Source: Thermoguttaceae bacterium (GTDB lineage Bacteria > Planctomycetota > Planctomycetia > Pirellulales > Thermoguttaceae). Taken from it: a stretch of DNA of 64,000 nt. Location of the stretch: contig JAZRWE010000033.1 of the NCBI GenBank assembly GCA_045599605.1, positions 85,687 to 149,686 of the forward strand, written 5' to 3'. Of this stretch, positions 3,311 through 31,080 are shown one piece after another. The notes under the pieces were generated by a model that ran no database searches, was not told the origin of the DNA, and saw only the letters and a program-made list of their open reading frames with translations. Within the stretch, counting starts at the first letter, position 1. Each line of letters starts with the position of its first letter. Both the position numbers and the translations under genes were made by a program.

Positions 3311-3952
3311 TCATTTCTTATTGAGCGTCATCGCGGCGCGGATATAGACCCAGCCGGAATAGAGCGTCAAATAGACGACGACGTACAACAACAAGACGAA
3401 CGCGACTTTGAGCCAACACGGCGCGGCGTCGCCCATGATGAGAATGAGGAAGCCGAGAGGCAGGTCGACGCATTGCAACGCCGTCTTCCATTTTCCGACC
3501 CACTTCGCGGAGAAGTCGCCGCCGCTAGATTCGACCATCGAGCGGAGCATCGTGACGAACATTTCGCGCATAATGATCGCGACGACCATCCAAGTGGCGA
3601 CGCCGATAGGAATTTTGCACATCGGACAAGACCCCGTCGCGCAAGCGCTATTGAAGAGGTCGTGTAGTTCGGGCACGGCGACGAAGTAGATGAACGTGCC
3701 GCAGACGAGCGCTTTATCGGCGAACGGATCCATGATGCGTCCGAATTGCGTCTTCTGGTTGAATTTTCTCGCCCACCATCCGTCGACGTAGTCGGTCAAC
3801 GCGGCGATAACGAACAGAACGAGGCAGGTCTTATAGTAATGGAACGGGAAGATCGCAAAGAGAACGAGCGAGAGGACGATACGCGCTACAGTTAACGCGT
3901 TCGGAACATTGTACAGTTTGCTATTCGGAGAGGCTTGTTGGTTCTCGGACAT
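3311..3952 (-). CDS. pgsA: CDP-diacylglycerol--glycerol-3-phosphate 3-phosphatidyltransferase
   Basis: It carries the CDP-alcohol phosphatidyltransferase signature D-G-x2-A-R-x8-G-x3-D-x3-D (DYVDGWWARKFNQKTQFGRIMDPFADK). It is a multi-TM protein of 213 aa. Confidence 0.8.
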   Translation of the reverse strand: MSENQQASPNSKLYNVPNALTVARIVLSLVLFAIFPFHYYKTCLVLFVIAALTDYVDGWWARKFNQKTQFGRIMDPFADKALVCGTFIYFVAVPELHDLFNSACATGSCPMCKIPIGVATWMVVAIIMREMFVTMLRSMVESSGGDFSAKWVGKWKTALQCVDLPLGFLILIMGDAAPCWLKVAFVLLLYVVVYLTLYSGWVYIRAAMTLNKK

Positions 3953-5633: not shown

Positions 5634-5972
5634 ATGAGAATAACAATGGTAGAAAGAAATAGAGACACGAACAGATCTTCGCAAGCGCAAGATCGCCGCC
5701 AATTTTGTCGCGTTTGTTTTGCGGCGTTGGCTAGCGCGTTAGTATTGCCCGGTTGCAAAACGCTGAACGAAGATCCTAAGAACGACCGATTCTGGTTCCC
5801 GACGATCGCGCCGCCGTCAAAGAAAGAGCGCGAGTTACGAGGGCGTTACGCCGAAGGGGGCGATCCTTACGTCGACGCCAACGTCGGACCGAAATCGTTT
5901 AACACGCGTCCGAAGGGGTGTACCGACCAACGCTCGCGAACTTATTACGACGATGAGATCGGCGGTTATTAA
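5634..5972 (+). CDS. small putative lipoprotein (lipobox LPGC)
   Basis: It has a signal-peptide-like hydrophobic stretch ALASALVLPGC followed by Cys. No homology was recognised. Confidence 0.4.
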   Translation: MRITMVERNRDTNRSSQAQDRRQFCRVCFAALASALVLPGCKTLNEDPKNDRFWFPTIAPPSKKERELRGRYAEGGDPYVDANVGPKSFNTRPKGCTDQRSRTYYDDEIGGY

Positions 5973-6030
5973 GTCGCGGAAATAAAGCGTTTCGCGAGCA
6001 CGCTGAGACGCCGGTTATATAATAATGAGA

Positions 6031-6060
6031 AACGTCGCTTAATGGCGGCGTTTTTTTATT
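6031..6060 (+). terminator. putative rho-independent terminator (ACGTCGC...GCGGCGT stem with a G-U pair, then TTTTTTTATTT)
   Basis: The hairpin and T-run were read from the sequence, downstream of the small lipoprotein gene. Confidence 0.4.
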
Positions 6061-6273
6061 TAATCGAAAAAGCTTTCTTTTTTGGAAAAATAGGTAAAAA
6101 GTTTTAAATTCTCTTTTCTTTTGCATTAAAAAATGATATAATCGCGACGACTATCGCATTTATACGTAGTCAATATTAATAGTAGTCGCCAAGGGAAGGC
6201 GACTGCGAACCGTTGAGACTCCTACGGTCCCCCCTGCACTTTGAAGTAATAAACTATGAAGGAGACGGACGTT

Positions 6274-7575
6274 ATGAAACGCCTGGCTGGAACGACTTAT
6301 AATAAATCCGGTTTTACGTTGTTGGAATTGCTTATCGTATTGGCGATCTTGATCGTCATTATTGGTATTCTTGGAACGACGATCTGGGGTTCCTATAAAA
6401 AAGCGTTGATCCGCGCGGCTACGGTCCAAGTTCAGACGACGCTCCAAAACGCTTGCGAAGACTTCCATATCGAATTTCATCGTTATCCGAACCAACAAGA
6501 AGGACTTTACATTCTTGCCGACATGGATAATCCGGAAGCCCCCGCGATGAATATGATGGACGCCAATAATATGAATAATATGAACGGCGGCATGAACAAT
6601 ATGGGCATGGGCAACATGGGCATGACCGGCGATATGAACGGCAACATGGGCATGGGTAACATGGGCGCCGGCAACATGGGCATGGCCGGCGACATGAACG
6701 GCAACATGGGCATGGGCAACATGGGTATGGCCGGCGACATGAACGGCAACATGGGCATGGGCAACATGGGCATGGGCAATATGGGCATGACCGGCGACAT
6801 GAACGGTAACATGGGCATGGGCAACATGGGCATGGGGAACACCGGTATGGGCGACATGACCGGCATGAATAACAACATGACGGGCGTTTCTATGACCGGC
6901 GACATGAACAACATGAATAACATGAACAATATGCCCGGCATGAACAACATGAACAACATGAACGGCACGGCTAATTCGACTATGCCGATGAATGGTTCCA
7001 ACACGATCTACAAGCGTCCTAAGATCAGCGTCCCGCTCATCAAAGAAAAAGACCTCATCGACCCGTGGAACAATCCTTACAAGTACGAATACCCGACGAC
7101 CAAGGGTGACGGCAAGAAGCCCGCGATCTGGTCTTGCGGTCCTGACGGTATCGACGACAACGGCGACGGCGACGACGTCATCAACTGGGACGCCGAAGAT
7201 ACTACCGGTATGATGAACGCTCAGCGTCAACAAATGCAACAAAACAACATGAACAACATGAATAACATGACCGGCGACATGAACAACATGAACGGCATGA
7301 TGCAACCGAACATGACCGGCGACATGAATAACATGAACGGCATGATGCAACCGAACATGACCGGCGACATGAACAACATGAACGGCATGATGCAACCGAA
7401 CATGACCGGCGACATGAATAACATGAACGGCATGATGCAACCGAACAACATGAACGGCGGTATGGGCGGTATGAACGGCGGCATGATGCAACCGAATAAC
7501 ATGAACGGCGGCATGGGTGGTATGAACGGCGGCATGAACGGCATGGGCGGCGGTATGACCGGCGGCATGTTCTGA
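6274..7575 (+). CDS. GspG-like major pseudopilin (prepilin-type N-terminal cleavage/methylation domain) with about 250 aa of Met/Asn/Gly-rich repeat insertions
   Basis: The N-terminus reads MKRLAGTTYNKSGFTLLELLIVLAIL, the classic prepilin leader plus hydrophobic helix. The GspG core elements QQEGLY and DPWNNPYKYEYP...GKKPAIWSCGPDGIDDNGDGDDVINWD are present. A perfect SD (AAGGAG, 6259-6264) precedes the ATG at 6274. The ORF track's ATG at 6256 lies inside that SD. Confidence 0.75.
   Translation: MKRLAGTTYNKSGFTLLELLIVLAILIVIIGILGTTIWGSYKKALIRAATVQVQTTLQNACEDFHIEFHRYPNQQEGLYILADMDNPEAPAMNMMDANNMNNMNGGMNNMGMGNMGMTGDMNGNMGMGNMGAGNMGMAGDMNGNMGMGNMGMAGDMNGNMGMGNMGMGNMGMTGDMNGNMGMGNMGMGNTGMGDMTGMNNNMTGVSMTGDMNNMNNMNNMPGMNNMNNMNGTANSTMPMNGSNTIYKRPKISVPLIKEKDLIDPWNNPYKYEYPTTKGDGKKPAIWSCGPDGIDDNGDGDDVINWDAEDTTGMMNAQRQQMQQNNMNNMNNMTGDMNNMNGMMQPNMTGDMNNMNGMMQPNMTGDMNNMNGMMQPNMTGDMNNMNGMMQPNNMNGGMGGMNGGMMQPNNMNGGMGGMNGGMNGMGGGMTGGMF
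6590..7446 (+). repeat. in-frame tandem DNA repeats inside the GspG-like gene: about 42-bp units (GDMNGNMGMGNMGM) across 6590-6960, and four near-perfect 45-bp units (MTGDMNNMNGMMQPN) at 7267-7446
   Basis: Direct reading shows ATGACCGGCGACATGAA(C/T)AACATGAACGGCATGATGCAACCGAAC repeated four times head-to-tail at 7267-7446. Upstream, GGCAACATGGGCATG...GGCGACATGAACGGCAACATGGGCATGGGCAACATGGGCATG recurs several times. Confidence 0.85.
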
Positions 7576-7758
7576 TCGTGAGCTCAGGTTGTTGTTTTGA
7601 TTTGACGCCGCTTCGAGAGCGAGGCGGCGCGTAAAGATATGACGCGATACGGTCGTTTGGCCGAATCGCGCCTTTTTCTGTTTCTAAGGCGAGCGCGACG
7701 GAGCCCCCTTTTGCCGATCGCGCGACATTCGTAGATATAGCTTCACGGCGAGGTTGGA

Positions 7759-9867
7759 ATGAGAAGAACCGCGTTCACGCTGCTTGAACTCTTGTTAGTT
7801 TTGGCGATCATCATCGCGATCGCCGGAATGGGAGTTATGGGGTACCAGCGTCAATACGCTCGTTCTCAATTCAAGAGCGGCGTGATACAGTTGCAGGTCG
7901 ATCTGACTTGCGCGCGCGTCTTGGCCATGCAGTCGGGCAACGCTTACGTCTTTCGCTATGTTCCCGGTTCTAACGTCTATGAGATCGCGCCTCTGAAAAC
8001 TCTGCAAGAAACTCTCTATCGCGTTAACGGCGATCTTGCCCAAGCGGACGGTTACGACTCTCTCGGAGGTTCGCTTACGACTTCCGTAGGTCCGACGCCT
8101 TCGCTCGGCGTTTCCGCGTTAGGCGCGAATCCTCTCGGTATGGATCTTCTAGGCGCGAACTCGTTGAACATGGGCGCGGGGACGACTTCTATCGGATTCG
8201 ATACCTCGGCGCTCGGCGCGTTGACCGGAACCGACCCCGCCGCCGCGATGATGGGGGCGATGATGGGCGTCAATATGGGATCGGGCGCCGCGACCGCGTA
8301 TACCGACGACCTTTTCTCGCCGGAGAATATTGCCGCCGATATGGCGGAGGCGATGAAAGCCAACGAACGCGACGCGCGCTTGGGCGCAACTAACGTCGAT
8401 CTGACCGGCGGTCTTGGCGGGAGTTTGAATTCGATAGCAGGCGTGCCCGCGCTTGCCTCTAATAATATGACGCCCGGACTTGGCGGTTCCGCGCTTGGCG
8501 GGACGGCGCTTGGCGGCGCCGCGATGATGAATGGCGCCGCGACTTCGGGCGTTGCGAGTCCTTACGGTTACGCGACCGATTACTCCGGTATGGGAGGCGA
8601 ATTTGGACTTGATGCGACGGGTATGACGACCGGACAAGTTCCGTCGGCGATACAGACGCTGCGCGATCTCAACGGTACCGAGAAATTACTTGCCGACGAA
8701 CACACGCTAATGTCGCGAGTCAATCTCGACGGTCTTATCATTCGTAAACAGATCGCCGGCGACGTCGTTTTCACTTTCATGCGCGTCTCCGATTCGACCT
8801 CGTCGCCGTTGCGCGCTCGACGTCCCGGCGCAGCGAAAAACGATTCGGCTAGTCCGATCACAGGCGCGAGCGAAGGCGAAGACCTCGGTTCCGCGCTCGG
8901 CGGATCGTTGCGCAGTATCCCAGTCGCTTCTAATAACGACGCCTTGGGCGGCGCGTTGAGCGCGATACCGGGAACGGATCCGACCGGTATGACCGACGCC
9001 GAGTCTTATGAGGAAGATCCGCTTGCGACGAGCATGTGGTCGGAACCGCTCGTGTTCTTTCCCAACGGTAAGACGTCGAGCGCCGTTCTCGGCTTCGCGA
9101 GTATGAACGAGTACTCGTTCTATTCCGAGATCTCGTTGCGCGGTATGACCGGCGTTTCGCGTATCTCCGCGATCTCCGCGGTTCCGCCGGAATACGACCC
9201 CGCGTCGACCGCGTTGACGCAAGAACAGCTCTTCCGACTCTATAATCCCGGCGTCGCGTATTCAGGAAACGACCCCGCAAACGCAAGCGCGACAGGCGGC
9301 GCGCTAAACTCGACGACTCCAAACGCCGCGCTTGGCGTGGACGCGCCCGACGTCGCGACGACGTCCGGATCGCTCGATACGCTTGGCGGACTTGGCGCGA
9401 GCGACTTGTCCGCTCCTTCTGTGAACTATGGTCGAGCGGGCGGAGGCGGTTACGGCTCTACGGAACGTCGCTCGGGCTACAGCTTCAACGCGACCGGCGG
9501 TCGCAACGGCGGCGCGCAAGGCATGCCCGACGCCGGCGGACTTGGCGTCGCGAACGGCGGTATGGACCAAGGCGCGTTAGGCGGAATGAACAACGCGAAC
9601 GGCGCTCTTGGCGGCATGAACGATCCGACAGGCGGAATGAACAACGCGACGGCCGGAGGCGGACTTGGCGGTTTGGGCGGCGCTAATAACGGCGCGCTTG
9701 GCGGTAACGACGATCCGTTTGGAGCAGTCGACGCGGCTATGGGCGGTCTTGGAAACGACGGCGGCGGTCTTGGCGGTAACGCGAACAACGCCGGCGGCGC
9801 GCTTGGCGGCGGCGAAAACGATCGCAACGACAGAAACGAACAAGATATTATGGGAGGCGGACTGTGA
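7759..9867 (+). CDS. GspH/FimT-like minor pseudopilin (prepilin N-terminus) with a long G/A/S/L/M/N-rich low-complexity C-terminal extension
   Basis: The N-terminus is MRRTAFTLLELLLVLAIIIAIAG. A GspH-like segment (GVIQLQVDLTCARVLAMQSGNAYVF) follows. The 702-aa protein is dominated by LGG/ALGG repeats, and an SD (GAGGT) precedes the ATG. Confidence 0.6.
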   Translation: MRRTAFTLLELLLVLAIIIAIAGMGVMGYQRQYARSQFKSGVIQLQVDLTCARVLAMQSGNAYVFRYVPGSNVYEIAPLKTLQETLYRVNGDLAQADGYDSLGGSLTTSVGPTPSLGVSALGANPLGMDLLGANSLNMGAGTTSIGFDTSALGALTGTDPAAAMMGAMMGVNMGSGAATAYTDDLFSPENIAADMAEAMKANERDARLGATNVDLTGGLGGSLNSIAGVPALASNNMTPGLGGSALGGTALGGAAMMNGAATSGVASPYGYATDYSGMGGEFGLDATGMTTGQVPSAIQTLRDLNGTEKLLADEHTLMSRVNLDGLIIRKQIAGDVVFTFMRVSDSTSSPLRARRPGAAKNDSASPITGASEGEDLGSALGGSLRSIPVASNNDALGGALSAIPGTDPTGMTDAESYEEDPLATSMWSEPLVFFPNGKTSSAVLGFASMNEYSFYSEISLRGMTGVSRISAISAVPPEYDPASTALTQEQLFRLYNPGVAYSGNDPANASATGGALNSTTPNAALGVDAPDVATTSGSLDTLGGLGASDLSAPSVNYGRAGGGGYGSTERRSGYSFNATGGRNGGAQGMPDAGGLGVANGGMDQGALGGMNNANGALGGMNDPTGGMNNATAGGGLGGLGGANNGALGGNDDPFGAVDAAMGGLGNDGGGLGGNANNAGGALGGGENDRNDRNEQDIMGGGL

Positions 9868-10652
9868 TCGTCAAACGAAGTTCCGGACTCTTGCGCCGCG
9901 AGCGCGAACGCGTTGCGGCGACACGTCGCGCGTTTACGTTGTTGGAGATCCTTGTCGTGCTCGCCGTCCTCGGCATGGGTATGGGGCTCATCACGCAGAT
10001 GACGCTCGTCGCGTCGCGTCACTCCGAACGCGTTGAAGAAGACACGTTCGTTCAACTTGCTTGCGAGAACATGATGAGTTCGATCCTTGCGGGGAACATG
10101 ACCGCGACGGTCGGCGTCTCTACTCCGATCCCCGACGCGCCAAATTGGGAAACGACGATCGAATTGCTCGACGGCCCGATCGAGAAACTTGTCGCGATAC
10201 GCATCACCGCGCAGCGATACGCGATCGAAGAGTACCCGTCGCAAGACGGTTCCGGGTTCCCTATTAGCGTGCGCGAACCGGAAGACGGTCGACGCTTCGT
10301 GATCAAGGAATACGCGCGTCGCGCCGACATAAAAACGCGCGTCGTCCAGACGAACGCTCAAGGCGAAATGACGGCGACCGACGGGACCGGCGAAACGTTC
10401 GCAAACGATCTCTTGGGTCAACAAAACGCGATGGGCGGCGGACTCGGTATGGACGCGCTCGACCCGTTTGCGGCGGTAGATCGCGGCATGGCGGCGACTA
10501 ACGGCGGTAATAATAACGTCGGCGGCGGTCTAGGCGGCGGAGTCGGCGGTCTAGGCGGCATGACCGGCGGCTTTGGCGGCGATAATATCAACGTCGGCGG
10601 CGGTCTTGGCGGCGGTAATCTCGATCGGGGATTCGGAAACCTTGGTTTCTGA
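9864..10652 (+). CDS. GspI-like minor pseudopilin (prepilin N-terminus), GTG start overlapping the upstream stop
   Basis: The sequence contains RRAFTLLEILVVLAVLGMG. A GTGA start/stop overlap with the previous gene is preceded by a GGGAGG SD. The C-terminus is G-rich GGGLGG repeats. Confidence 0.5.
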   Translation: MIVKRSSGLLRRERERVAATRRAFTLLEILVVLAVLGMGMGLITQMTLVASRHSERVEEDTFVQLACENMMSSILAGNMTATVGVSTPIPDAPNWETTIELLDGPIEKLVAIRITAQRYAIEEYPSQDGSGFPISVREPEDGRRFVIKEYARRADIKTRVVQTNAQGEMTATDGTGETFANDLLGQQNAMGGGLGMDALDPFAAVDRGMAATNGGNNNVGGGLGGGVGGLGGMTGGFGGDNINVGGGLGGGNLDRGFGNLGF

Positions 10653-10693: not shown

Positions 10694-13261
10694 ATGAAAA
10701 AGCAAGAAGACGATACGATGAGAACGAAATTGCGAGTCGAACGCGGCGCGGATCCAACGCGTCGTGGGTTTACTTTGCTTGAAATTCTCCTCGTCTTGGT
10801 GTTGATAGTCGTTCTACTTGGCGGTCTTGCTTCGTTAATACGCGTATTCACCAATAGTTATTTCTCAAATGAACGTCGCGTCGGTAGAGCGCAACTTGCG
10901 CGTTCGATATCGCAGATGCTTGAAGACGATCTTGGCGCCGCGATACAGGATCCAATACAAGCGGTCGCCGAAGACGCTAACCGCCAATTTATCCGCCACT
11001 TCGGACTTCGCGGGGACGCGCGGTCGTTACAGATCGACGTCGTGCAACCTAGCCTGTTTGCGAAGACGGCCACCGTCGACGAGAATATCCGCGTTCAATC
11101 CGGCGGGGATAAATCCGCAGCGTCGCGACAAGCGCCGGAATTGAAAACGATCTTCTACGAATTTGTTCCGATCAACGCAAGCGAAGTTATTGAAGGACAA
11201 CAAAATACGACAAACGGAACCGTCGCCGCGCAAGGCGAGGATCTTGGTTCTTCGCTGACCGGCTCGCTTTCCTCGACTTCGCCCGACTCGGCGTTGTCTA
11301 ACGTTAACGGTGACGTTCTCGCCGACTCGTCTTCTTTCCGCGATCCAACGCTTCCGCTCGCGCAGAAATACGGCTTGTCGCGTCGCGAACTCGATTTTGA
11401 GACGCCGGAAGAAGATACGGAAGAAACGGACCAACTAAGCGCGTACGATCTTGGCGCCTCTATCGATCCTGAGACGGGGGCGGCGACCTCGACGTTGAGC
11501 GGTTCGCTGACGTCCGCGCCGACGACTCAGAACTCTACGCTGACGTCGACCGATCCTAGCGTCAACGCCGCGCTCGGTATCGTCGACGCGACGCAATACG
11601 TTTACAAAGAACCGCTTACCGCCGTACAGATCGCGATGGATTCAGACGACGGCACGACGTGGGCGCCGGAAGTGCTCGATTGCCGTTTCAGCTACTTTGA
11701 CGGCGAAAAATGGCGCGATTCGTGGGATAGTATTCAAGATAAAGGACTTCCGATCGCGATCAAGGTCGAATTGAAGATGGCGCCGCTCGACGACGTCGAT
11801 CTCTATCGCAGCGCGCCGATCTTCGCGATGTTGCCCGTAGCGCCCGACCTTGAAACGCTTTCAAAACTAGCGACCGCGGGAGACCAACTTGTCGATACCG
11901 ACGAAGTTAACGTAAGTCGTTTGGCAGGCTCGCTTACTCGTACCGCGAAAGAAAAAGGCGAACCCGTCGACGTGTTCAATTCGTATCGGCCTCTTGCCGC
12001 TATTCGCGCCGCGATGGAAGGCGTGGTCACCAATCGCGACGGCGCTTCGACGTTCGCGGAAGTCGCCGCGTCCGCTATGCTGTTGCGTGCCAATGAGTTA
12101 GAAACGCAAAACGCGAGTTCGCCCGGCGATATGGAAGGCGGTCTGGCGTTCAGTAGCGGACTTGGCGGTTCGCTCAACGGTTCTTCTACGTCGACGGACG
12201 GCGCGTTAGGGGGCGGCTTGACTTCCGGAACCGCTAATACCGCCAACGTCAATACGGGCGACCCGAGTCTGGACCCGTCGATCGCGATCGTGCAGGAAAT
12301 GATGGCGAACGGCGCCGTATTTAACGAGGCGGGTATCTGCGTCGACTTCTCTAACGACGGTTCTTATGTAACGCTCGAACAGATCGCCGAGGAGATCGGC
12401 GTGACGGAACCCAATGTTTACGAAGTGATCGTCTATCTCCCGACGACTCCGCTCAGCCGCGCGACGACGGTCCAACGCCGCGTCGCGACGACGGTGCGCC
12501 AAGGCAATGTCTCGCAACGACGTAATACGAACGCCGCCGGCGGAAATAGTCGCGATCGTCGCGCGCAAGGTCAGAATCCTTACGCCACCGGTAGAGCGCG
12601 ACAATCGCAACCTCGTGAAAGAACGGAACGCACAAGAAACGAGCGCACGGCGCAAGATCGTCAACGCGCGGATCGGCAGACGGCGGAACGCGGACGCGCC
12701 GATCGTCAAGCGGTCGACCGCGGCGGCCCCGTCGAGCGACAAGCAAATAATCGTCAAGTTAACGAACGCCAAGGAGGCGAAGCGCGAACCGCAAATACGC
12801 GCGAAACGCGAGAACGCGTCGGACGCAACGGCGGTTGGACCGACGATAGCCCCAATACGGTCAACTACGGGAATCGTAACGCGAATAATAGAGCGCAAGT
12901 AGGAGATACTAACGGCGTCGGCGGTTTCGGTAACGCCGCCGCGGATCTCGGCGGTCTTGGCGATCGTAACGCGGTAACGCCGTCTCTTGGTCAAGGGGGC
13001 GGGCTCGCGGGCGGACTTGCCGGCAACGGCGGCGCCACGCAGATTCAGACCGATCCGTTTGCTATCGTCGACCAACAGATGAACGCCGCCTCGTCTGCGC
13101 CGTTTGCGTCGCAAAACGCTGATATGGATATTTTTGGCGGAATGACTACGCCGGGGTTGATCGAGACGCCTAACGGAACGAACACGGTCGCTTCTCCGAC
13201 CGCGCCCGCCGCGCCGCAACGCCAAGGTCAGCAACAAACGTGGATCCGCGGTAAGAAATAA
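10694..13261 (+). CDS. GspJ-like minor pseudopilin (prepilin N-terminus) with large S/T/G-rich and Arg/Gln/Glu-rich low-complexity regions
   Basis: The sequence contains RRGFTLLEILLVLVLIVVLLGG followed by a GspJ-like helix region. The protein is 855 aa, far larger than canonical GspJ. An alternative start is at 10718. Confidence 0.5.
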   Translation: MKKQEDDTMRTKLRVERGADPTRRGFTLLEILLVLVLIVVLLGGLASLIRVFTNSYFSNERRVGRAQLARSISQMLEDDLGAAIQDPIQAVAEDANRQFIRHFGLRGDARSLQIDVVQPSLFAKTATVDENIRVQSGGDKSAASRQAPELKTIFYEFVPINASEVIEGQQNTTNGTVAAQGEDLGSSLTGSLSSTSPDSALSNVNGDVLADSSSFRDPTLPLAQKYGLSRRELDFETPEEDTEETDQLSAYDLGASIDPETGAATSTLSGSLTSAPTTQNSTLTSTDPSVNAALGIVDATQYVYKEPLTAVQIAMDSDDGTTWAPEVLDCRFSYFDGEKWRDSWDSIQDKGLPIAIKVELKMAPLDDVDLYRSAPIFAMLPVAPDLETLSKLATAGDQLVDTDEVNVSRLAGSLTRTAKEKGEPVDVFNSYRPLAAIRAAMEGVVTNRDGASTFAEVAASAMLLRANELETQNASSPGDMEGGLAFSSGLGGSLNGSSTSTDGALGGGLTSGTANTANVNTGDPSLDPSIAIVQEMMANGAVFNEAGICVDFSNDGSYVTLEQIAEEIGVTEPNVYEVIVYLPTTPLSRATTVQRRVATTVRQGNVSQRRNTNAAGGNSRDRRAQGQNPYATGRARQSQPRERTERTRNERTAQDRQRADRQTAERGRADRQAVDRGGPVERQANNRQVNERQGGEARTANTRETRERVGRNGGWTDDSPNTVNYGNRNANNRAQVGDTNGVGGFGNAAADLGGLGDRNAVTPSLGQGGGLAGGLAGNGGATQIQTDPFAIVDQQMNAASSAPFASQNADMDIFGGMTTPGLIETPNGTNTVASPTAPAAPQRQGQQQTWIRGKK

Positions 13262-13307
13262 CGCTTGTTAACGCGGTAATTACGATAGTTCGGATGTGAG
13301 GAACGCT

Positions 13308-15224
13308 ATGGAAAACGACGCTTTAAATACGCAGACTGCCGCGAACGACAACGGCGCCGACTACGACGCCGCGGAACGCGAAGCGAAACGCGTGCGCCGC
13401 GCGATATATAATCTCTTGATATTCGTAGCGTTAGGCGTCGGTTTTGGTAAGATCGCCTCCGTCGATTCCGTTTACGATCGCGCTATTCAGAATTTCCGCT
13501 TGCAACAGATCCCGAAGACGTTGGAAGCTAAGGATAAAGAATTGCAAGACAAAGGCGTCGAACCGGAACGTCGACAAGCGGAATTAGAACGCGTCTACAA
13601 CTCTTTACTAGCCGACGCAAATAAAGCGCGTCCAACGCTTTGCGCTAACGACCGTAGTCGTTGGGCGACGATCCGCGCGCTCGTTGAACCGGATATGCGC
13701 GTCTATCGCTACACGCCTGTGTTCTCCGACGAACAAAAAGCCGATCGTATCTCGGAGCTGTCGATGCGAGAACCGAACAGCGCGAAGAAGATACGCTTTA
13801 AGTTCTACGATAACGAGATCTTACGAAATTGCGCGTCCGATTGCTCCGAACAATTTTCCAAAGAACACGCCGTCGCGAAGCGTTACACGCGAAAGCTAGT
13901 TCCTTACGCCGTCGACAAAGTCTGGGAAACGCCGGGTTGGGATTCTATCGACGTTGTCAAACATGGACTTAAAGACGAAGTTTACGTTCCTGAGAACCCG
14001 TCGTCAGGTTATATCTATTCCAGCAAACCGACCCTATTGCCGACGCTGATGGCGGCCCCGTATTGGGTCTTGTATCATTGCTGCGGATTGTCGCTCTCCA
14101 AAAATCCGTTTGAAGGCGTGAAGATACTACTTGTTTTCTATAACCTTATTCCGTTGGGACTTGCGTTCCTTTGCCTGACGTCGTTAATCGACTCTGTTGG
14201 GAAGACGACGTGGGGGCGGTTGTTCGCGGTCGCAACGCTGCTGTTCGCGTCTTTCGCGTTGACCTTTGTAGCGACGTTAAATAACCATATACCGGGTTTT
14301 GTGGCGATATCGATCTCGCTTTGGGCGGGGATGAAGATCTTACGCGACGGCAAAGATTCATGGATATACTACGCGTTAGCCGGGTTCTTTGGTGCGTTTG
14401 CCGTCGTCTGCGAGTTGCCCGCGCTGGCGTTTGCAGGAACGTTGTTCTTGTGCCTCGTTATAAGTAAAGCCAAGAAAACGCTTGGCGTTTCCGTCCCGTT
14501 TGGACTCGTCGTCGCCGTCGCGTTTGTTTCGACCGACATGATCGCGCATCAATCGCTCAAACCGGCGTATTCTCATAAACGCGATCATATGGCGTTGGCG
14601 GAACAAGCGAAAGCCGCTACGGATGAGACGGCGAAGAACGCCGACGGCGCGCCGTTATTTGAATTCGATCCTAACGACTGGTATTACTACGTTTATTATC
14701 CCGCGGGGAAGACTCGCGAGATGAAGAACGCGCGTATTAGCCACTGGGCTTATCGCACCGGTATCGATCGCGGGGAACCGTCGATCGCGCGTTACGCGTT
14801 CCATTCGACGATCGGCAGTCGCGGGGTATTCTCGCTTGCTCCGGTCTGGATATTCAGTATCTTTGGCGCGATCGCGTTCGCGTTGACAAAAGGAAAGACC
14901 GATCCCGGAAAACGCGCGCTCGGCGTAATGACGCTGGTGTTGACGGTCGTATTTTTTGCGTTCTTCCTGACGCGCGATCAAGGGGACCGCAATTACGGCG
15001 GGGTATGTTGTTACCCGCGTTGGTTCTTCCCGTTGATACCGTTGTTTGCGCCCGCGCTTACGCCGGCCGCCGACGCGTTGTCGAAACGAGCGTTCGGACG
15101 ATGGATCGCGTATTTGGCGTTATTTATCGCGGCGGCTTCCGCGTCCTATCCGACGTGGTCGCCGTGGGTCTCGCCGTGGTTCTATCAATTCGCCGTCGAT
15201 TGGAATTGGATGGAGCCGTATTGA
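13308..15224 (+). CDS. polytopic inner-membrane protein of unknown function (about 230-aa soluble N-terminal domain plus about 10 predicted TM helices)
   Basis: This is a long ORF with many hydrophobic helices. The ATG at 13308 has an SD (GAGGA) 5 nt upstream, whereas the ORF-track start at 13296 is GTG. It lies 35 bp downstream of the pseudopilin genes on the same strand. No recognisable family motif was found. Confidence 0.6.
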   Translation: MENDALNTQTAANDNGADYDAAEREAKRVRRAIYNLLIFVALGVGFGKIASVDSVYDRAIQNFRLQQIPKTLEAKDKELQDKGVEPERRQAELERVYNSLLADANKARPTLCANDRSRWATIRALVEPDMRVYRYTPVFSDEQKADRISELSMREPNSAKKIRFKFYDNEILRNCASDCSEQFSKEHAVAKRYTRKLVPYAVDKVWETPGWDSIDVVKHGLKDEVYVPENPSSGYIYSSKPTLLPTLMAAPYWVLYHCCGLSLSKNPFEGVKILLVFYNLIPLGLAFLCLTSLIDSVGKTTWGRLFAVATLLFASFALTFVATLNNHIPGFVAISISLWAGMKILRDGKDSWIYYALAGFFGAFAVVCELPALAFAGTLFLCLVISKAKKTLGVSVPFGLVVAVAFVSTDMIAHQSLKPAYSHKRDHMALAEQAKAATDETAKNADGAPLFEFDPNDWYYYVYYPAGKTREMKNARISHWAYRTGIDRGEPSIARYAFHSTIGSRGVFSLAPVWIFSIFGAIAFALTKGKTDPGKRALGVMTLVLTVVFFAFFLTRDQGDRNYGGVCCYPRWFFPLIPLFAPALTPAADALSKRAFGRWIAYLALFIAAASASYPTWSPWVSPWFYQFAVDWNWMEPY

Positions 15225-15815: not shown

Positions 15816-17131
15816 GTCGCGATATCGATAATGCGTCGTTCGATAACGCAAGCGCTCGCAAGGCGTTATTGGCGTGGTTTGAAAGTTGTGGAAGAAAATT
15901 TCCATGGCGCGACGACCCTACGCCTTATCGCGTCTGGATCAGCGAGATAATGTTGCAACAGACGACGACGCAGACGGTTATCGGGTATTTCGAGCGATTC
16001 GTTACGCGTTTTCCCGATGTCGCGACCTTGGCGGCGGCGTCGGAAGAGGAAACGTTAAAATATTGGGAAGGCTTAGGTTATTATCGTCGCGCGAGAGCGT
16101 TGCGCGCGGCGGCGATCGAGATCGTAGAACGCTTTAACGGCGTCTTTCCCTCTGATTACGACGACGTTCTATCTCTTCCCGGCATAGGACGTTACGCGGT
16201 CGGCGCGATACTTTCTTTCGGTTTCGATAAGCGCGCCGCTATTCTTGAAGCGAACACGACGCGACTCCACGCGCGGTTGTTGGGCTTGCGAGAAGAGACG
16301 ACGCTCGCTGATTCTCAGAAAACGCTATGGCGTTTCGCGGAAGAATGGTTGCCCGAAGAATCTAAACGCCGCGAGTCTGGCGTTTATCGTAATATCAACG
16401 CGGCGTTGACCGATCTTGGGAGAATGGTCTGCTCCCCTAGTTCGCCTAATTGCGGCGCGTGTCCTTTGGCGCGGTTTTGCGAATCGAATCGGCTCGGGAT
16501 ACAAGACGTCGTGCCGGTCTTGAAGAAGAAACAAGAGACTATCCCGCGCGTCGACGTCGACGTATGGATAACGCGACAAGAACTTAGCGACGCGAAGAAT
16601 GTGAAAGACGACCCCGGGATTACAGCCGGACTCTTGGAACCGAAGCCGACGGACGTTTTACTTGTTCTGCGTCGACAAGGCGTTCTTTGGGCGGGGCTCT
16701 GGGAGTTTCCTCGTTTTGAGGCGGCGCAAGGTCGGAAATATTCGCTAGACGAGTTGCCGCGAGACGTGTATCTCAAAGACAGATTGCAATATTTTTTAGA
16801 AGAGGAAGTCGGCGCGACCTCGGGCGATCGCGGACTGACGCCGGCGGAAAAAACGATACGGCATAGCGTAACGCGTTACCGCGTCGAACTTGCGTTATGC
16901 AGATCGACCGCGGAAGGCGTTAGCGTGGACGAGCGACAAAACACGCTCTTCGAATTGGAACCGCGAGCGGAAAACACGAGTCGAGCCGAGGATACGAAGC
17001 CGGCGTTTTGCGCGCGTCAGGCGGAAGAATTGCGCTGGGTCCCGGTAGAGAAATTGGCGGAATATCCGTTGAGTTCGCCGGGTCGACGACTTGCGGACTA
17101 TATCGTGAAGAAGTCGCAAAAAAATAACTAG
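15812..17131 (+). CDS. mutY: A/G-specific adenine DNA glycosylase (with C-terminal NUDIX-like domain)
   Basis: It carries LLAWFESCGRKFPWR, the HhH-GPD motifs VWISEIMLQQTTTQTV and LPGIGRYAVGAI, and the 4-Cys cluster CxxxxxxCxxCxxxxxC (CSPSSPNCGACPLARFC). An ATGA overlap with smpB is present. Confidence 0.85.
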   Translation: MSRDIDNASFDNASARKALLAWFESCGRKFPWRDDPTPYRVWISEIMLQQTTTQTVIGYFERFVTRFPDVATLAAASEEETLKYWEGLGYYRRARALRAAAIEIVERFNGVFPSDYDDVLSLPGIGRYAVGAILSFGFDKRAAILEANTTRLHARLLGLREETTLADSQKTLWRFAEEWLPEESKRRESGVYRNINAALTDLGRMVCSPSSPNCGACPLARFCESNRLGIQDVVPVLKKKQETIPRVDVDVWITRQELSDAKNVKDDPGITAGLLEPKPTDVLLVLRRQGVLWAGLWEFPRFEAAQGRKYSLDELPRDVYLKDRLQYFLEEEVGATSGDRGLTPAEKTIRHSVTRYRVELALCRSTAEGVSVDERQNTLFELEPRAENTSRAEDTKPAFCARQAEELRWVPVEKLAEYPLSSPGRRLADYIVKKSQKNN

Positions 17132-17282
17132 TCAACAGTATAATAATTTTAAATTATTTGTGGATTTTTAATTCTAGCGCTTTGCGTAAATTCGTAAATT
17201 TGGTAGAATAGCATAGAAAATTGGCGCGTGTCGCCCTGACTCGCGCGTTTGGTAAATAGTCTATTTTGAAAGGACTTTAATT

Positions 17283-18638
17283 ATGAAGTTTTGGGCTACT
17301 TTAGCCGCCGTCGCTCTTATGTGCGGTTCCGTCGCTTTCGCTCAACAACCCGGTCAAGCTCCTCGTGGCGGCATGATGCGCGCCCCGATGATGATGGGTA
17401 TGACCCAACCCGAACCGCTCTTCGGTGAAAATCTCGAAAACGGCGATTTCCCGGAAGGCGTTTGGTACCTCGACGAAGACGGTTGCCTCTGCGCGAAGAA
17501 AGACAACGTCATTTGGACGAAACAAAAGTACTCCGCTTACGTCTGCTCGTTCGAATTCAATCTTTCCGAACACACCAACGGCGGTTTCCTCATCCAATGC
17601 TCCGATAAGGACAACTGGATCCCCAATACGATCGAGATCCAACTTCTCGACGATTTCGGTCAAGAACCGGATTACCACACCTGCGGTTCTATCTACGGTT
17701 TCCAAGCTCCTCGCGAAAACGCGACGAAGAAGCCCGGCGAATGGAACAAGATGGTCGTAATGGTCAATGGTCGCGATATCACCGTCGTCCTCAACGACAA
17801 GTTCGTCAACCACATCAATACCGCTGAATGGACCGACAACGCTAAGAGCCCGGCCGGCACCGATATTGAAGAAAAATTCCATGGCCGCACCCTCGCGTCC
17901 TTCGAACCTTACGGCTACATCGGCTTCCAAGGTCTGCACGGCAACTCCCCGATGAAGATCCGCAACGCGGTCATCTCCCCCATCAAGAATGCCGATACCT
18001 CTCGCGAAGGTTGGGTCTCCCTCCTCGGCGATAAGCTCGAAAACGCTGAATTCGATCCCGAAGTTTGGTCTATCGACGACGAAGGCGTCCTCCACGCCAC
18101 CAAAGACGAAGTCATTTGGGCGAAAGATAAGTATGAAAACTTCTCTCTCGACTTCGAATACCAAGTTACCGAAAAGGCTAACTCCGGTATCGTTATCCAA
18201 TGCACCGACAAGGCCAACTGGATCCCCAACTCCTTCGAAGTCCAGATCTTCGATTCCTATGGTCGCGACGTCGATATGAGCGACTGCGGCGCTATCTATG
18301 GCCGTTGCGCTCCCGAATTCAACGCCTGCAAACCGGCCGGCGAATGGAACCACATGACCATCAACGTCATGGGTCCTCGTATCTCCGTCATCCTTAACGA
18401 CCAACTCACCACCGTTATGGATAAGCGCCAATGGACCGAAAAGGATAAGAATCCTGACGGTACCGAACCTTACGGCTGGCTCATCAACAAGGCCCCGGCT
18501 GAAACCGAAAACGCCGGTTTCATCGGTCTCCAAGGCCTCCACGCCGGTCAACCCGTTGTCTATCGCAACGTCAAGATCCGCAAGTTCGAATTCCCGCAAC
18601 GCGGTCAAGGCCAACGCGGCCAACGTCGCGGCAACTGA
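17283..18638 (+). CDS. secreted protein with two tandem DUF1080 (3-keto-disaccharide hydrolase / LamG-like) domains
   Basis: A signal peptide (MKFWATLAAVALMCGSVAFAQQ) leads the protein. Two internally repeated domains of about 200 aa each end with GFIGLQGLH...(V/I)xYRNVKI, which matches the DUF1080 C-terminal signature. Confidence 0.7.
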   Translation: MKFWATLAAVALMCGSVAFAQQPGQAPRGGMMRAPMMMGMTQPEPLFGENLENGDFPEGVWYLDEDGCLCAKKDNVIWTKQKYSAYVCSFEFNLSEHTNGGFLIQCSDKDNWIPNTIEIQLLDDFGQEPDYHTCGSIYGFQAPRENATKKPGEWNKMVVMVNGRDITVVLNDKFVNHINTAEWTDNAKSPAGTDIEEKFHGRTLASFEPYGYIGFQGLHGNSPMKIRNAVISPIKNADTSREGWVSLLGDKLENAEFDPEVWSIDDEGVLHATKDEVIWAKDKYENFSLDFEYQVTEKANSGIVIQCTDKANWIPNSFEVQIFDSYGRDVDMSDCGAIYGRCAPEFNACKPAGEWNHMTINVMGPRISVILNDQLTTVMDKRQWTEKDKNPDGTEPYGWLINKAPAETENAGFIGLQGLHAGQPVVYRNVKIRKFEFPQRGQGQRGQRRGN

Positions 18639-18689
18639 GTCCAACTCAGTTTAACGTCTTTCTCTGAACGACGTTAGATAAGAACAAAT

Positions 18690-18726
18690 GCGCGCTTCTT
18701 CGTCATCGAGGAAGCGCGTTTTTTTA
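18690..18726 (+). terminator. rho-independent terminator (CGCGCTTCTTCG-TCAT-CGAGGAAGCGCG followed by TTTTTTTA)
   Basis: A 12-bp stem containing one G-U pair is followed by a 7-T run, 52 bp after the DUF1080 gene stop. Confidence 0.65.
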
Positions 18727-18949
18727 TGTCTACATAAGTAGTTTATCGTAAGATAAGTCGTTTGCCGCAATGCTTTTATACGCGTTCAGAACTTTCGCGA
18801 GATCGAAGGCGTTGAGGACGCGTAAAGCGTGTTGAGGTATGCGTTAACGCGCTAACGCAATAAGCGCGGTTCGCGTTCCGTTTTGGAACAACGAGCGAGC
18901 GCAGAATATTTTTATATGCGTAAAGTAATGAAGCGAGCGTTCAAGAAAT

Positions 18950-24438: not shown

Positions 24439-25446
24439 ATGAAAGATCGTTTTGGTTTTACTTTGGTAGAACTTTTAGTCGTTATCGCGATAATCGGAAT
24501 TCTGATCGGCTTGCTGTTGCCCGCCGTTCAAGCCGCTCGCGAAGCCGCTAGGAGGATGCAATGCCAAAACAACGTTAAGCAGTGGTGCTTAGCGTTGACG
24601 AATTACGCAGACGCGACGCTCGCGTTTCCGACGTTCACGAGCTGGGGAAACAGCGTAAGCGCGGGAACGACCGGACTCAATACCGGTTTTTCGATCCATG
24701 CGCGCATCTTGCCGTACATCGAGCAAGGTTCGTTTATGCTCGGGATAGATTTCGGCGACTACGACAAGTATCGCCTCTGGGCCAATCAGTCCGCGATCAA
24801 TTCCGCGCTCTTTGAGAAATGCGATTTCCCTTGCGCGACGCTGTGGTGTCCTAGCGAAGACCAGGAAAAAAAGGCGTTGCAACCGCGCAACGACAACTTG
24901 TACTGCAATAACGTGAACTACGTGTTCTGTTCCGGAACAAGCGTAGGGCGCGCGAACAACCTTGACGGGCTCATGAACGACGGGACGTTTCGTTACGCGC
25001 AGACGACGTTTGCGACGCTCGTCGACGGGACCTCGAACACGATGGTCGTCTCGGAAGCGCGTATGCAGCTTGCCGCGTTTTCCGACGCCGAGAAGACTAT
25101 GGATCGCATGAGCGTTTTAGGCGAGGGGACTTGCGAGTCGTATATCGACCCCGACTTGACGGCGATGCGTTCTCAAGCGTCGTTGACGCACCGCGGTTCG
25201 CCGTGGCTTGCGGGCAGACATTACGCGACCGGGTATTCCGCGTACTCCGCGCCTAACGCGAAAGTTCCGGGGATATGGCTGCGCGGATCGGAATTGCTGT
25301 TCGAGGGCGCGGCGTCGAATCATCCGGGCATAGTCGTCGTGGGATACGCCGACGGCAGCGCGCATATCGTCTCCGAGACGATCGCGCTAGACGTTTGGCG
25401 CGCCGCCGCGACCGCCGCGGGGGGAGAGACCGTCTCCGCGCTGTGA
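24439..25446 (+). CDS. DUF1559 (H-X9-DG) domain protein with prepilin-type N-terminal cleavage/methylation motif
   Basis: The N-terminus is MKDRFGFTLVELLVVIAIIGILIGLLLPAVQAAREAARRMQCQNN, which matches the stereotyped start of the large Planctomycete DUF1559 family. An HxxxxxxxxxDG-like element lies near the C-terminus (YADGSAH). Confidence 0.85.
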   Translation: MKDRFGFTLVELLVVIAIIGILIGLLLPAVQAAREAARRMQCQNNVKQWCLALTNYADATLAFPTFTSWGNSVSAGTTGLNTGFSIHARILPYIEQGSFMLGIDFGDYDKYRLWANQSAINSALFEKCDFPCATLWCPSEDQEKKALQPRNDNLYCNNVNYVFCSGTSVGRANNLDGLMNDGTFRYAQTTFATLVDGTSNTMVVSEARMQLAAFSDAEKTMDRMSVLGEGTCESYIDPDLTAMRSQASLTHRGSPWLAGRHYATGYSAYSAPNAKVPGIWLRGSELLFEGAASNHPGIVVVGYADGSAHIVSETIALDVWRAAATAAGGETVSAL

Positions 25447-27120: not shown

Positions 27121-27891
27121 ATGGAAGATATCAAAGCGCCGGCCGTTCAGACGATCGGCTTGACAAAGCGATATCCGCGCGGCGACGCGGAGTTTGACGC
27201 GGTCTCGAATCTCGATCTTACGGTCGAACAAGGCGATTTCGTCGCGATCATGGGAGCGAGCGGCTCGGGTAAGAGCACGGCGATGCACCTTATCGCGGGC
27301 TTAACGCGTCCCACCTCGGGCGAGGTCAGGATCGAAGGTGAGACTATCTCGAAGATGAGCGATCGCGCGTTGACGATCTTTCGTCGACGACGTATGGGGA
27401 TCGTTTTTCAGAGCTATAATCTCATTCCGCACTTGACCGCGGAAGAGAATATCTTGTTCCCATTACGCGCCGATCGTCGCAAGATCGATTCGACCACGAT
27501 GGATAAACTCCGCGCGTTTTGGGAAGAACTCGATATCGTTAAACAGCTTGGGCAATACCCCGACGCGTTGAGCGGCGGACAACAACAACGCGTCGCGCTG
27601 GCGAGAGCGTTGGCGACGGAACCGGCCGCGCTGCTTGCCGACGAGCCGACCGGCAACCTCGACTGGACGAGCAGTCAGAATATCTGTCGATTCTTCGATA
27701 AGTTGAATCGCGAAGAATCGCGGACGATCGTGCTTGTTACGCATGAGCCCGCCGTCGCTATTTGGGCGAAGCGCGTGGTCGTTTTGCGCGACGGCAAGAT
27801 CGCGATGGATTATCAGACCTCTCAATTCTCCGACGCGGCGGAATTGGCGGCGACGTATCAAAGCATAGCGCGCCGCGCCGACGAATGTTGA
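27121..27891 (+). CDS. ABC transporter ATP-binding protein (MacB/LolD/FtsE-like)
   Basis: It carries Walker A GASGSGKST, the ABC signature LSGGQQQRVALARAL, and Walker B LLADEPTGNLD. It lies 19 bp downstream of the preceding gene. Confidence 0.85.
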   Translation: MEDIKAPAVQTIGLTKRYPRGDAEFDAVSNLDLTVEQGDFVAIMGASGSGKSTAMHLIAGLTRPTSGEVRIEGETISKMSDRALTIFRRRRMGIVFQSYNLIPHLTAEENILFPLRADRRKIDSTTMDKLRAFWEELDIVKQLGQYPDALSGGQQQRVALARALATEPAALLADEPTGNLDWTSSQNICRFFDKLNREESRTIVLVTHEPAVAIWAKRVVVLRDGKIAMDYQTSQFSDAAELAATYQSIARRADEC

Positions 27892-27906
27892 CGAAGGGAG
27901 ACGCGT

Positions 27907-30900: not shown

Positions 30901-31080
30901 AAACTCGGACAGAGCATGTTCGGGTCGTTCGATCCTCCGCTCGTCTTGCCGTTCAAGGGGTTGGCGTTAGGTTTCGGCTTGACGCTCGCGCTGTGCATGG
31001 CGGCGGCTATTTATCCCGCGATCAAGACCGGTAGAACGGAAACGCTCAAACTCTTGCAAGGCGGAAGATCCGTCGAGTAA
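27907..31080 (+). CDS. ABC transporter permease with two FtsX-like domains (MacB/LolE-like, duplicated) and large extracytoplasmic domains
   Basis: The protein is 1057 aa. Two 4-TM FtsX-type modules are present (around LAGLTRSQVGRSILIEATILALPGW and VGMTRWAIIRAILVEAILIGVV). It lies immediately downstream of the ABC ATPase. Confidence 0.75.
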   Translation: MNFIWKLTLSRMLRQKVRLLFVLLAIAASSCLVVWTIGGFQALFIDATTGDVDHLGNYDLRVAAALPTSMPDLQAQNAQGGKGNERAFKSPLARPDDKQKQNAEKDAKKPVAEEKNEESVNERSESENASGEPQNGANGRSENANKPRGGPRGGFGGRMFGMGAPALEIPETLAAEMRADDAVAICDEVSTLRMYVYSPGVETSILEDSDGVDEGLKPTLKRALSITDEELAAVGEAPKGVDPELHRKALAAYRATMGTPLGKGSTFQATTAGNSPYEIQEGRWFESKAADGTVPFEAVLTTKGVAKFNAKVGDTILLLDNSSQLGISAEYQLSVVGIVDDVETDSFYVSRELANAISKSPVKTNSLYVKLRGDVNEFRDRWNARFEKELPGAKAVTKEEIKEAIANAMRDNQAFKYQFASGTLLAALAALLIVFTALNMSVDEEKRLIAFYRLAGLTRSQVGRSILIEATILALPGWVAGMLSGWALVSINAGKVTGLNPQTVGYSFVCTFIGGVLAAMYPIFRSARVRPLDAIGAPEKKYDTAKTRRRQNINCCIATAIGVLAIAADLYLVHHLPGDSLKRAALHSGYGVALLAVGVVCMLPLTIRLAEMLLLPILAWIFRFDAKVLRRELSGNASRVIAVSVALSVGGGLFCTMQIWGYSMLDPFLPGRRTPDAFAAFLPNGLRPEIVDELKKIPNIDMERFIPVAVEQAAFTADLIPDDERKKEFANVVFFGVDVEKAFLGRSPLVGMRFRQGSVKDAVKAMKDGRGVIVTDSLPGDYNLKLGDTLKVIHPRDPEKVLEYPIVGVVSFPGWQWLSKTGGVRRNFGRSGGVVFAREDIIASDYDIERRSYFWFDSKDGKIDYASTEFACDYLARKNLAADVADGTIDIADVFSQTAYVKLSTRESLTESISSRADSVIWALSKTPLTTLIISAIAVVGAIANSVRARRWVYGVMRAVGMTRWAIIRAILVEAILIGVVASIASFSFGFLAAHGVLKLGQSMFGSFDPPLVLPFKGLALGFGLTLALCMAAAIYPAIKTGRTETLKLLQGGRSVE

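Follow-up and report, generated by a model that had tools for sequence, protein, structure and literature searches.

Here we describe a gene for a long-form major pseudopilin in a 64,000-nucleotide stretch of DNA from a Thermoguttaceae bacterium (GenBank assembly GCA_045599605.1, contig JAZRWE010000033.1, positions 85,687 to 149,686 of the forward strand; hereafter the window). Judged from its sequence, the gene encodes a GspG-type major pseudopilin of a Planctomycetota-specific long-form clade. In the predicted structure, a normal leader, helix and β domain are accompanied by about 154 disordered residues in the α–β loop and by a C-terminal extension of about 123 residues that is mostly disordered; both added modules consist of Met-rich low-complexity repeats. 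This structural description of a modified pseudopilin is solid, whereas the function of the modules is something that we infer from their composition alone. On balance, we lean slightly towards the view that they form a charge-poor, flexible, self-cohesive sticker-and-spacer coat on the pseudopilus and not a dedicated metal site.

The open reading frame (ORF) spans positions 6256–7575 on the + strand, and the ATG at 6274 is the likely start, giving 433 residues and a stop codon. The gene and its parts are as follows.

6260–6265, + strand: Shine–Dalgarno-like AAGGAG, 8 nt 5′ of the start codon at 6274 (visible in the sequence itself).
6274–7575, + strand: gspG-like gene for a long-form major pseudopilin of 433 residues (Pfam, NCBIfam, phmmer against PDB, and Foldseek).
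6274–6312, + strand: predicted prepilin leader MKRLAGTTYNKSG, cut before F14 (G−1, F+1, E+5), from the motif KSG/FTLLELLIV in the sequence.
6313–6543, + strand: α1 helix and start of the α–β loop, residues 14–90 (AlphaFold2 (AF2) helix at residues 16–68; aligns with PulG 1–82).
6544–7005, + strand: low-complexity region 1 (LCR1), a Met/Asn/Gly insert in the α–β loop, residues 91–244 (composition and low predicted local distance difference test (pLDDT) scores).
7006–7203, + strand: folded β domain with the Asp-rich loop GPDGIDDNGDGDDVINWD, residues 245–310 (pLDDT of about 84–94; T2SSG stretch).
7204–7572, + strand: low-complexity region 2 (LCR2), the C-terminal tail, residues 311–433 (helix predicted at 311–332, then disordered Met/Asn/Gly/Gln repeats).

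An earlier note on this DNA, made from its letters, had called the 433-residue product a GspG-like pseudopilin, and family searches bear this out. The Pfam model T2SSG (PF08334) matches at 46.1 bits against a cut-off of 21 (E = 5.8 × 10−12) in two stretches with an insert between them, the best being the C-terminal one (residues 258–311 in the numbering of the 439-residue ORF). N_methyl (PF07963) scores 26.8 bits (cut-off 21.2) and TIGR02532 17.9 bits (cut-off 16.3). A phmmer search of PDB matches the protein to PulG, XcpT and GspG; in the alignment with PulG (5wda), residues 14–96 correspond to PulG 1–82 and residues 263–301 to PulG 92–125, so that about 166 residues of the window protein stand in place of about 9 residues of PulG (82–92). 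Foldseek searches of PDB place only major pseudopilins and pseudopilus filament models (GspG, EpsG, XcpT and PulG) among the best 15 matches. Two results count against a full assignment. The GspG equivalog model TIGR01710 reaches 65.4 bits, below its cut-off of 88.85, with its best stretch at the N terminus (18–92); the protein is hence named GspG-type or GspG-like and not an equivalog, and the model is broken up by the 154-residue insert. The Foldseek E-values are likewise weak (0.24 or above, over 44–74 aligned columns only) because the disordered insert breaks up the alignment. A match to Pfam DUF1720 at residues 316–385 was judged a mere low-complexity composition match and set aside. Three antisense ORFs (6160–7491, 6507–7004 and 7227–7568, all on the − strand), rich in His/Val/Ala or Met/Pro/Phe/Leu, were rejected as shadows of stop-free repeat DNA, because prepilin and T2SSG signatures occur only in the + frame. 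Exact database look-up of the window protein in its 439- and 433-residue forms returned no identical entry.

The class III signal peptide (MKRLAGTTYNKSG/FTLLELLIVLAIL) has a short leader ending in Gly, followed by F+1, E+5 and a hydrophobic α1N segment, and F14, T15, L16, E18, L19 and L20 are invariant among 44 homologues. Invariant in the same set are D263, W265, Y271, P283, W286, S287, G289, D300 and D301 of the β domain. The last two lie in the Asp-rich loop (GPDGIDDNGDGDDVINW), where D291 and D294 are nearly invariant. The corresponding loop binds Ca2+ in EpsG and GspG, and the same role is putative here. In an AF2 model built on the 44-sequence alignment, block-mean pLDDT is about 81–94 at residues 11–90 and 250–330, drops below 50 at residues 93–244 (bar isolated ones) and for most of residues 340–421 or so, and rises slightly at the extreme C terminus.

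Compared with GspG, PulG, EpsG and XcpT (PF08334; 5wda, 3g20, 4lw9 and 2kep), the window protein is alike in the G−1/F+1/E+5 leader, the long α1 helix and the small β domain with its DPW...Y and GPDG...DD..W signature, and the gene is alike in being followed by H-, I- and J-like genes. It differs in length (433 residues against about 140–160 for canonical GspG), in having about 154 disordered residues in place of about 9 loop residues, and in its tail of about 123 residues. The operon differs from those of type II secretion system (T2SS) GspG genes in lacking any recognised gspK, gspD, gspE or gspF in its vicinity and in having greatly enlarged minor pseudopilins.

The composition of the protein is extreme. 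Its 433 residues include 86 Met (19.9%), 80 Asn and 77 Gly; the 26 other ORFs in the window have a Met frequency of 2.16%, and on that background a count of 86 or more would arise with a binomial probability of 8 × 10−55. Met, Asn, Gly, Gln, Asp and Thr together make up 309 residues, of which 241 fall within runs of at least eight residues drawn from these six alone. LCR1 is 30% Met, 26% Asn, 25% Gly and 4.5% Asp, with no Lys, Arg, Glu, His or Cys; LCR2 is 30% Met, 25% Asn and 22% Gly and ends in GGMF. In both regions Asp is the sole charged residue type, His, Cys and Trp are absent, Gly and Asn act as spacers, and Met recurs every 2–5 residues. One peptide unit, MTGDMNNMNGMMQPN, is present in four exact copies and another, GDMNGNMGMGNMGM, in three (four if the final Met is dropped). 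The underlying DNA holds three main tandem arrays, detected with Tandem Repeats Finder (TRF).

6597–6835, + strand: 105-bp unit × 2.3 inside LCR1 (TRF 91%, score 401), with nested 15-, 45- and 60-bp periodicities.
7267–7446, + strand: four head-to-tail 45-bp units (effectively 2 × 90 bp) encoding MTGDMNNMNGMMQPN × 4 (TRF 45 bp × 4.1, 97%, score 354).
7428–7537, + strand: 51-bp unit × 2.2, with units of the NGMMQPNNMNGGMGGMN type (TRF 94%, score 199).

The four 45-bp units begin at 7267, 7312, 7357 and 7402, and their sole difference is a synonymous AAC/AAT that alternates from unit to unit, which makes the array effectively 2 × 90 bp. The earlier note had described these units as identical but for one synonymous C/T, had counted four exact peptide copies and had put the residues made of the six amino acids at about 250; all three statements hold, the last as a fair estimate of the 241 counted in runs. 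Because 180 bp of near-perfect repeat is longer than a typical short read, the assembled copy number may be affected by collapse.

The repeats appear to turn over while keeping their frame. All high-scoring TRF periods in the window gene (score of at least 199) are multiples of 3 (15, 45, 51, 60 and 105 bp), and the same holds for the main periods in two orthologous loci, L035 (33, 36, 72 and 87 bp) and L037 (27 and 48 bp), where matches are 83–95% and the units are lineage-specific. Length variation, not frameshift switching, is therefore expected, and the divisibility of the units by 3 speaks against a phase-variable on/off contingency locus. Slippage or unequal recombination would shift the copy number with the reading frame intact, so that the length and unit sequence of the repeats would turn over fast. 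The recent expansion proposed in the earlier note thus agrees with the in-frame minisatellites and their lineage-specific DNA units. Its suggestion of length polymorphism is likewise supported: homologues that are 100% identical outside the repeats carry inserts of 45–135 residues and tails of 70–129 residues, and the pair P0011 and P0019 differ in insert (66 against 79 residues) and tail (114 against 153). These figures come from metagenome assemblies, where repeats can collapse, and some of the differences may have arisen in that way.

Such turnover raises the alternative that the modules are neutral or diversifying surface variation, in which slippage-prone repeats grew at a permissive loop and C terminus and the selected trait, if there is one, is variability itself, for example as an escape from filament-binding phages, predators or host factors. 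The extreme length differences between proteins with identical folded parts, the lineage-specific units (83–97% identical in DNA), the in-frame main units and the presence of low-complexity regions in the minor pseudopilins as well all fit this alternative. It is opposed by the retention of both modules at two fixed positions down to about 30–35% identity, and by a stable hydrophobic total (coefficient of variation (CV) 0.21) with near-exclusion of Lys, Arg, Glu, His and Cys, which argue for selection on composition. We consider it unlikely as a full account; it is compatible with, and not exclusive of, the sticker-and-spacer coat.

The long form is not peculiar to the window. A first homology search returned 46 homologues, the named ones all from metagenome-assembled genomes of Thermoguttaceae, Planctomycetia or Planctomycetaceae and labelled GspG. 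A profile search of 1.84 billion representatives of 50%-identity clusters gave 89 representatives at E ≤ 1 × 10−30, mostly of 300–450 residues, followed at lower ranks mostly by canonical GspG of 140–160 residues. At least 76 representatives are long-form GspG proteins, all so far from uncultured Planctomycetota and automatically annotated as GspG; ten further members that were looked up again came from uncultured Planctomycetaceae or Planctomycetales. The layout is shared across the clade: a low-complexity insert sits at one common point of the loop, and the C terminus bears a low-complexity tail. The window protein has more Met than any other member seen, 30% in both modules. Source names hint that many members may come from gut or other anoxic metagenomes.

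Judged by their sequences, the members of the clade conserve the composition of the low-complexity modules, not their sequence. The repeat units differ completely among orthologues: GDMNGNMGMGNMGM in the window protein, MMNDPMMGGNMN in P0002, GMGMQTGMGMDASG in P0011 and GGMMPPGGGM in P0045. Pooled segments nonetheless have a common make-up (Met about 20%, Gly 20–27%, Asn 12–15%, Gln 11%, Thr 7%, Pro 5–8% and Asp 3–4%), and Lys, Arg, Glu, His and Cys are essentially absent from them. Across 110 low-complexity segments of at least 60 residues from the 76 representatives, Met ranges from 1 to 30% and reaches at least 10% in 65% of the segments. Met content falls strongly as that of Phe, Tyr, Trp, Leu, Ile and Val rises (ρ = −0.78, p = 1 × 10−23, 110 segments), and total hydrophobic content is much steadier (22.7 ± 4.7%, CV 0.21) than Met alone (13.2 ± 7.2%, CV 0.55). 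Members with little Met have FG-type repeats, for example QQQFGGQQGFGFDPT and GFDPNNPN, and GGFDQPFGANNPGGGF in P0016, an orthologue-level relative with 1% Met. Met and Phe share the contexts in which they are over-represented: after GG, within GxG and ahead of Asp, which is then typically followed by Pro; for Met, the enrichment after GG is 2.9-fold across the clade. The final residue is Met or Phe in 37 of 70 long-form GspG proteins (...GGMF, ...QQPMF, ...GGGF), which suggests a conserved hydrophobic C-terminal end across the clade.

The Met-rich character belongs to gspG. Within 201 kb of DNA (the window together with eight related loci), gspG genes alone have long Met-dense low-complexity tracts, and the other sense-strand Met-dense tracts comprise only a short one after a signal peptide and a membrane segment. 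A proteome-wide Met bias is ruled out by this confinement and by the 2.2% background. Both of the minor tracts lie in the window: the short one, GGMMRAPMMMGM, directly follows the signal peptide of a secreted protein with two 3-keto-disaccharide hydrolase domains (17283–18638, + strand), and the sole other one is a membrane segment with 6 Met (3536–3625).

These features are brought together in the sticker-and-spacer coat. The α–β loop and the C terminus face outward in known pseudopili, as seen in the structures of PulG and EpsG. Each subunit would thus expose two flexible chains dotted with Met at the surface of the filament. Selection would keep about 23% hydrophobic stickers (usually Met, sometimes Phe, Leu, Ile or Val) among Gly, Asn, Gln and Pro spacers, and the modules would make a soft, weakly hydrophobic, cohesive brush on the pseudopilus. 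Sticker behaviour is favoured by the trade-off between Met and the other hydrophobic residues, the steady hydrophobic total, the FG-type repeats of Met-poor members, the contexts common to Met and Phe, and the pairing of Leu with Gly in the minor pseudopilins. Such a brush could bind cargo, channel or matrix promiscuously and with low affinity, or could seal a pore.

Several points weigh against this coat. The trade-off of Met against the other hydrophobic residues is partly a closure effect of percentages. The interchange of Met and Phe is also seen at the level of the clade, the window repeats themselves being nearly free of aromatic residues. About 280 disordered residues per subunit are hard to fit into a classical pseudopilus in the secretin vestibule, a misfit that leads us to suppose that the machine may not be a classical T2SS. 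In addition, neither the ORFs scanned in the window nor the flanks of the related loci yielded a gene for a secretin (gspD), ATPase (gspE) or platform protein (gspF).

The earlier note had instead proposed that the Met clusters bind Cu(I) or Ag(I). As a metal-binding fibre, the pseudopilus would sequester or buffer periplasmic or extracellular copper through chelation by MxM, MxxM and MxxxM clusters and Asp. The two repeat regions hold 84 Met, with 13 MxM, 30 MxxM and 28 MxxxM motifs, so that affinity for Cu(I)/Ag(I) is chemically plausible; there is precedent for Cu(I) binding by Met-only motifs, in Ctr1, and by Met-rich inserts, in CueO, PcoA and CopA. In 65% of the family segments Met is moreover the preferred hydrophobic residue, and the Met-dense trait is specific to gspG and not proteome-wide. 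The window repeats resemble the Cu(I) sites of Ctr1, CueO, PcoA, CopA and CusF in their dense MxM and MxxM motifs with interspersed Asp. They differ from these sites in having no His, Cys or Trp, in standing outside any copper-gene context and in that Met is replaceable in homologues, and to our knowledge no characterised Cu(I) site comes near the Met-rich region in length or repetitiveness. The ORFs scanned in the window include no copA, cus, cueO, copC/D or copper regulator, the sole RND pump there being of AcrB type and 50 kb away, and no copper-homeostasis genes occur among the precomputed Pfam labels of the eight related loci. Homologues swap Met for Phe, Leu, Ile or Val in matching motif contexts, P0016 down to 1% Met. 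The proposed copper role thus finds no support here, and we regard it as distinctly unlikely. If it were true, the filament would be a new kind of metal-buffering fibre. A Ca2+-binding reading of GDMNGN as an RTX-like nonapeptide was also discarded, since the GGxGxDxUx spacing misfits when compared by eye.

The coat finds closer parallels among cohesive phenylalanine–glycine (FG) nucleoporins and Met-rich prion-like domains (PMC8394241, PMC9312190), which share its charge-poor Gly/Asn/Gln/Thr spacers and regular hydrophobic stickers; some clade members carry actual FG repeats (QQQFGGQQGFGFDPT). The window modules differ in being bacterial, exported and pilin-attached, and in having stickers every 2–5 residues, a much denser spacing; their cohesion is presumed from likeness. 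The same parallel suggests a redox buffer or switch, in which exposed Met would scavenge oxidants or the formation of Met sulfoxide would reversibly alter the cohesion of the coat. The composition matches that of Met-rich Gln/Asn/Gly prion-like domains, which are reported to self-associate in an oxidation-sensitive manner (PMC8394241, PMC9312190), and a putative anoxic habitat of many members would fit as well. No msrA, msrB or msrPQ adjoins gspG at any locus examined, however, and Met-poor, Phe-rich homologues exist; we give this alternative little credence.

A second parallel is offered by the (GGM)n tails of GroEL/Hsp60, which contact clients, aid client folding and form a barrier at the cavity floor, and which have been compared with abductin, a Gly/Met elastomer (PMC12571646). 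Common to these tails, to abductin and to the window modules are Gly and Met in GGM-type units (the window tail ends in NGGMGGMNGGMNGMGGGMTGGMF), a disordered or polyproline II-prone state, and Met side chains proposed as soft hydrophobic contacts and as a barrier. The GroEL tails are of about 19–23 residues and cytoplasmic, whereas the window modules amount to about 280 residues per subunit and are extracytoplasmic, Asn/Gln-rich and attached to a filament; the comparison does not imply homology. A third parallel, and the closest concept described in print, is found in modular type IV pilins such as PilB of S. sanguinis (PMC8179133), in which a pilin likewise carries an extra grafted module that the filament shows. 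Modular pilins are mostly minor, tip-located subunits with a folded domain on a linker (PMC8179133); unlike them, the window protein is the major subunit and carries two disordered modules, one of them inside the pilin fold.

Taken further, the charge-free MG/FG-type modules might clothe a filament of Planctomycetota, one that spans the periplasm or lies at the surface, in a hydrogel-like brush or plug, which would serve either as a selective self-sealing barrier or as a sticky surface for the capture of macromolecules. Such a structure could sit in a secretin or crateriform pore, and Met could be the preferred sticker in anoxic habitats. We rate this extension as a long shot. If true, a hydrogel plug would give bacteria an extracytoplasmic counterpart to the permeability barrier of FG nucleoporins or to the plug formed by the GGM tails of GroEL. 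Planctomycete fibres from crateriform structures have been proposed to act in macromolecule uptake (PMC5394234, PMC12673574), any link to this gspG gene being conjectural.

As sequences these objects are not new: the long-form proteins are already in databases under the plain GspG label. The earlier note knew of no precedent for Met-rich pseudopilins, which stands for the searchable literature, where full-text searches turned up nothing on pilins or pseudopilins rich in Met, nor on low-complexity modules in the pseudopilins of planctomycetes, but does not extend to sequence databases, with their 76 or more long-form representatives. Major pseudopilins are viewed as small, compact and highly conserved, and sized for the T2SS channel. 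A subunit of which about two thirds is disordered Met-rich repeat, together with inflated minor pseudopilins, challenges this classical geometry and suggests that planctomycetes use the filament differently. The clade also provides a natural series of Met-to-Phe/Leu sticker exchanges in an exported bacterial low-complexity domain, which could help in the study of Met-based cohesion, redox sensitivity and soft metal binding outside eukaryotic condensates.

Downstream of gspG, the locus continues with the following elements.

7606–7676, + strand: two hairpins after the gspG stop codon (RNA fold −41.5 kcal/mol, z = −2.4), the second (7643–7670) followed by a U-run.
7759–9867, + strand: GspH-like minor pseudopilin, 702 residues (motif AFTLLELLLV; weak GspH and ComGD matches; Gly/Ala/Leu/Asn low-complexity sequence).
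9864–10652, + strand: GspI-like minor pseudopilin, 262 residues (N_methyl; weak gspI match; Gly-rich tail ending in GF).
10694–13261, + strand: GspJ-like minor pseudopilin, 855 residues (N_methyl; sub-threshold T2SSJ match, 25.4 against 28 bits; several low-complexity regions).
13296–15224, + strand: polytopic membrane protein of 642 residues at the position expected for gspK, fifth in the operon (sub-threshold matches to PMT_2 and the LA_3751 family).

The hairpin pair resembles a terminator or attenuator that separates gspG from the genes for the minor pseudopilins, and as such may set a high ratio of major to minor pseudopilin; a pattern scan for terminators did not call it. All three minor pseudopilins have a prepilin motif and Gly-rich low-complexity regions of their own, in which Leu is used with Gly (GGLGG and ALGG units). 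The GspJ-like protein also has a charged stretch rich in Arg, Glu, Gln and Thr. GspK was not recognised among the ORFs downstream of gspG.

L035 and L037 are syntenic with the window, with flanking genes at about 70% DNA identity. The three loci share the order Rce1-like gene, CDP-alcohol phosphatidyltransferase, dehydrogenase, small lipoprotein and gspG-H-I-J. L035 also holds a gene for a 646-residue membrane protein (16848–18788) and mutY, whereas the L037 contig stops within the gspJ-like gene. More distant long-form gspG genes stand alone or with other neighbours. A genome scan with the family alignment yielded 34 loci, mostly of unrelated GspG or pilins that share a generic prepilin pattern. 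The lipoprotein just upstream of gspG in the window (5634–5972, + strand) has 112 residues and a lipobox (LPGC); it is conserved in L035 (9367–9717) and L037 (5103–5444), has no family match and is followed by a terminator-like hairpin at 6027–6056.

The 642-residue membrane protein is possibly glycosyltransferase C (GT-C)-like, a candidate assignment resting on matches below threshold (24.3 against 26.1 bits and 33.6 against 200). It raises the alternative that the repeats are a glycosylation scaffold, their Thr and Ser residues (in MTG and DMS) being O-glycosylated by this protein. Enzymes of the TfpW and PglL types modify the α–β loops of pilins, and this loop is the classical site of pilin modification. 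Thr makes up 5–8% of the low-complexity regions and stands at fixed repeat positions, and a polytopic protein with weak PMT_2/GT-C-like matches at the fifth position of the operon is syntenic in L035. Set against this, the GT-C matches are sub-threshold, a PDB search found no relative of the protein, and distant long-form gspG stands alone without such a membrane-protein gene. We judge glycosylation very unlikely to be what the modules are for.

Other low-complexity and prepilin-like proteins occur in the window. A DUF1598 protein (40846–42375, − strand) has long poly-Asn tracts after its signal peptide, and in another related locus, L044, a long-form gspG has a DUF1598 gene (11388–12761) immediately 3′ of it; this arrangement hints that the two may be functionally linked. 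A protein of 1120 residues (51905–55267, − strand) combines the middle domain of the hydrazine synthase α-subunit, a 3-keto-disaccharide hydrolase domain and a cytochrome c-like motif. DUF1559 prepilin-like proteins are typical of Planctomycetota, and one is encoded at 24439–25446 (+ strand), followed by an ABC/FtsX-type transporter cluster at 27121–31080.

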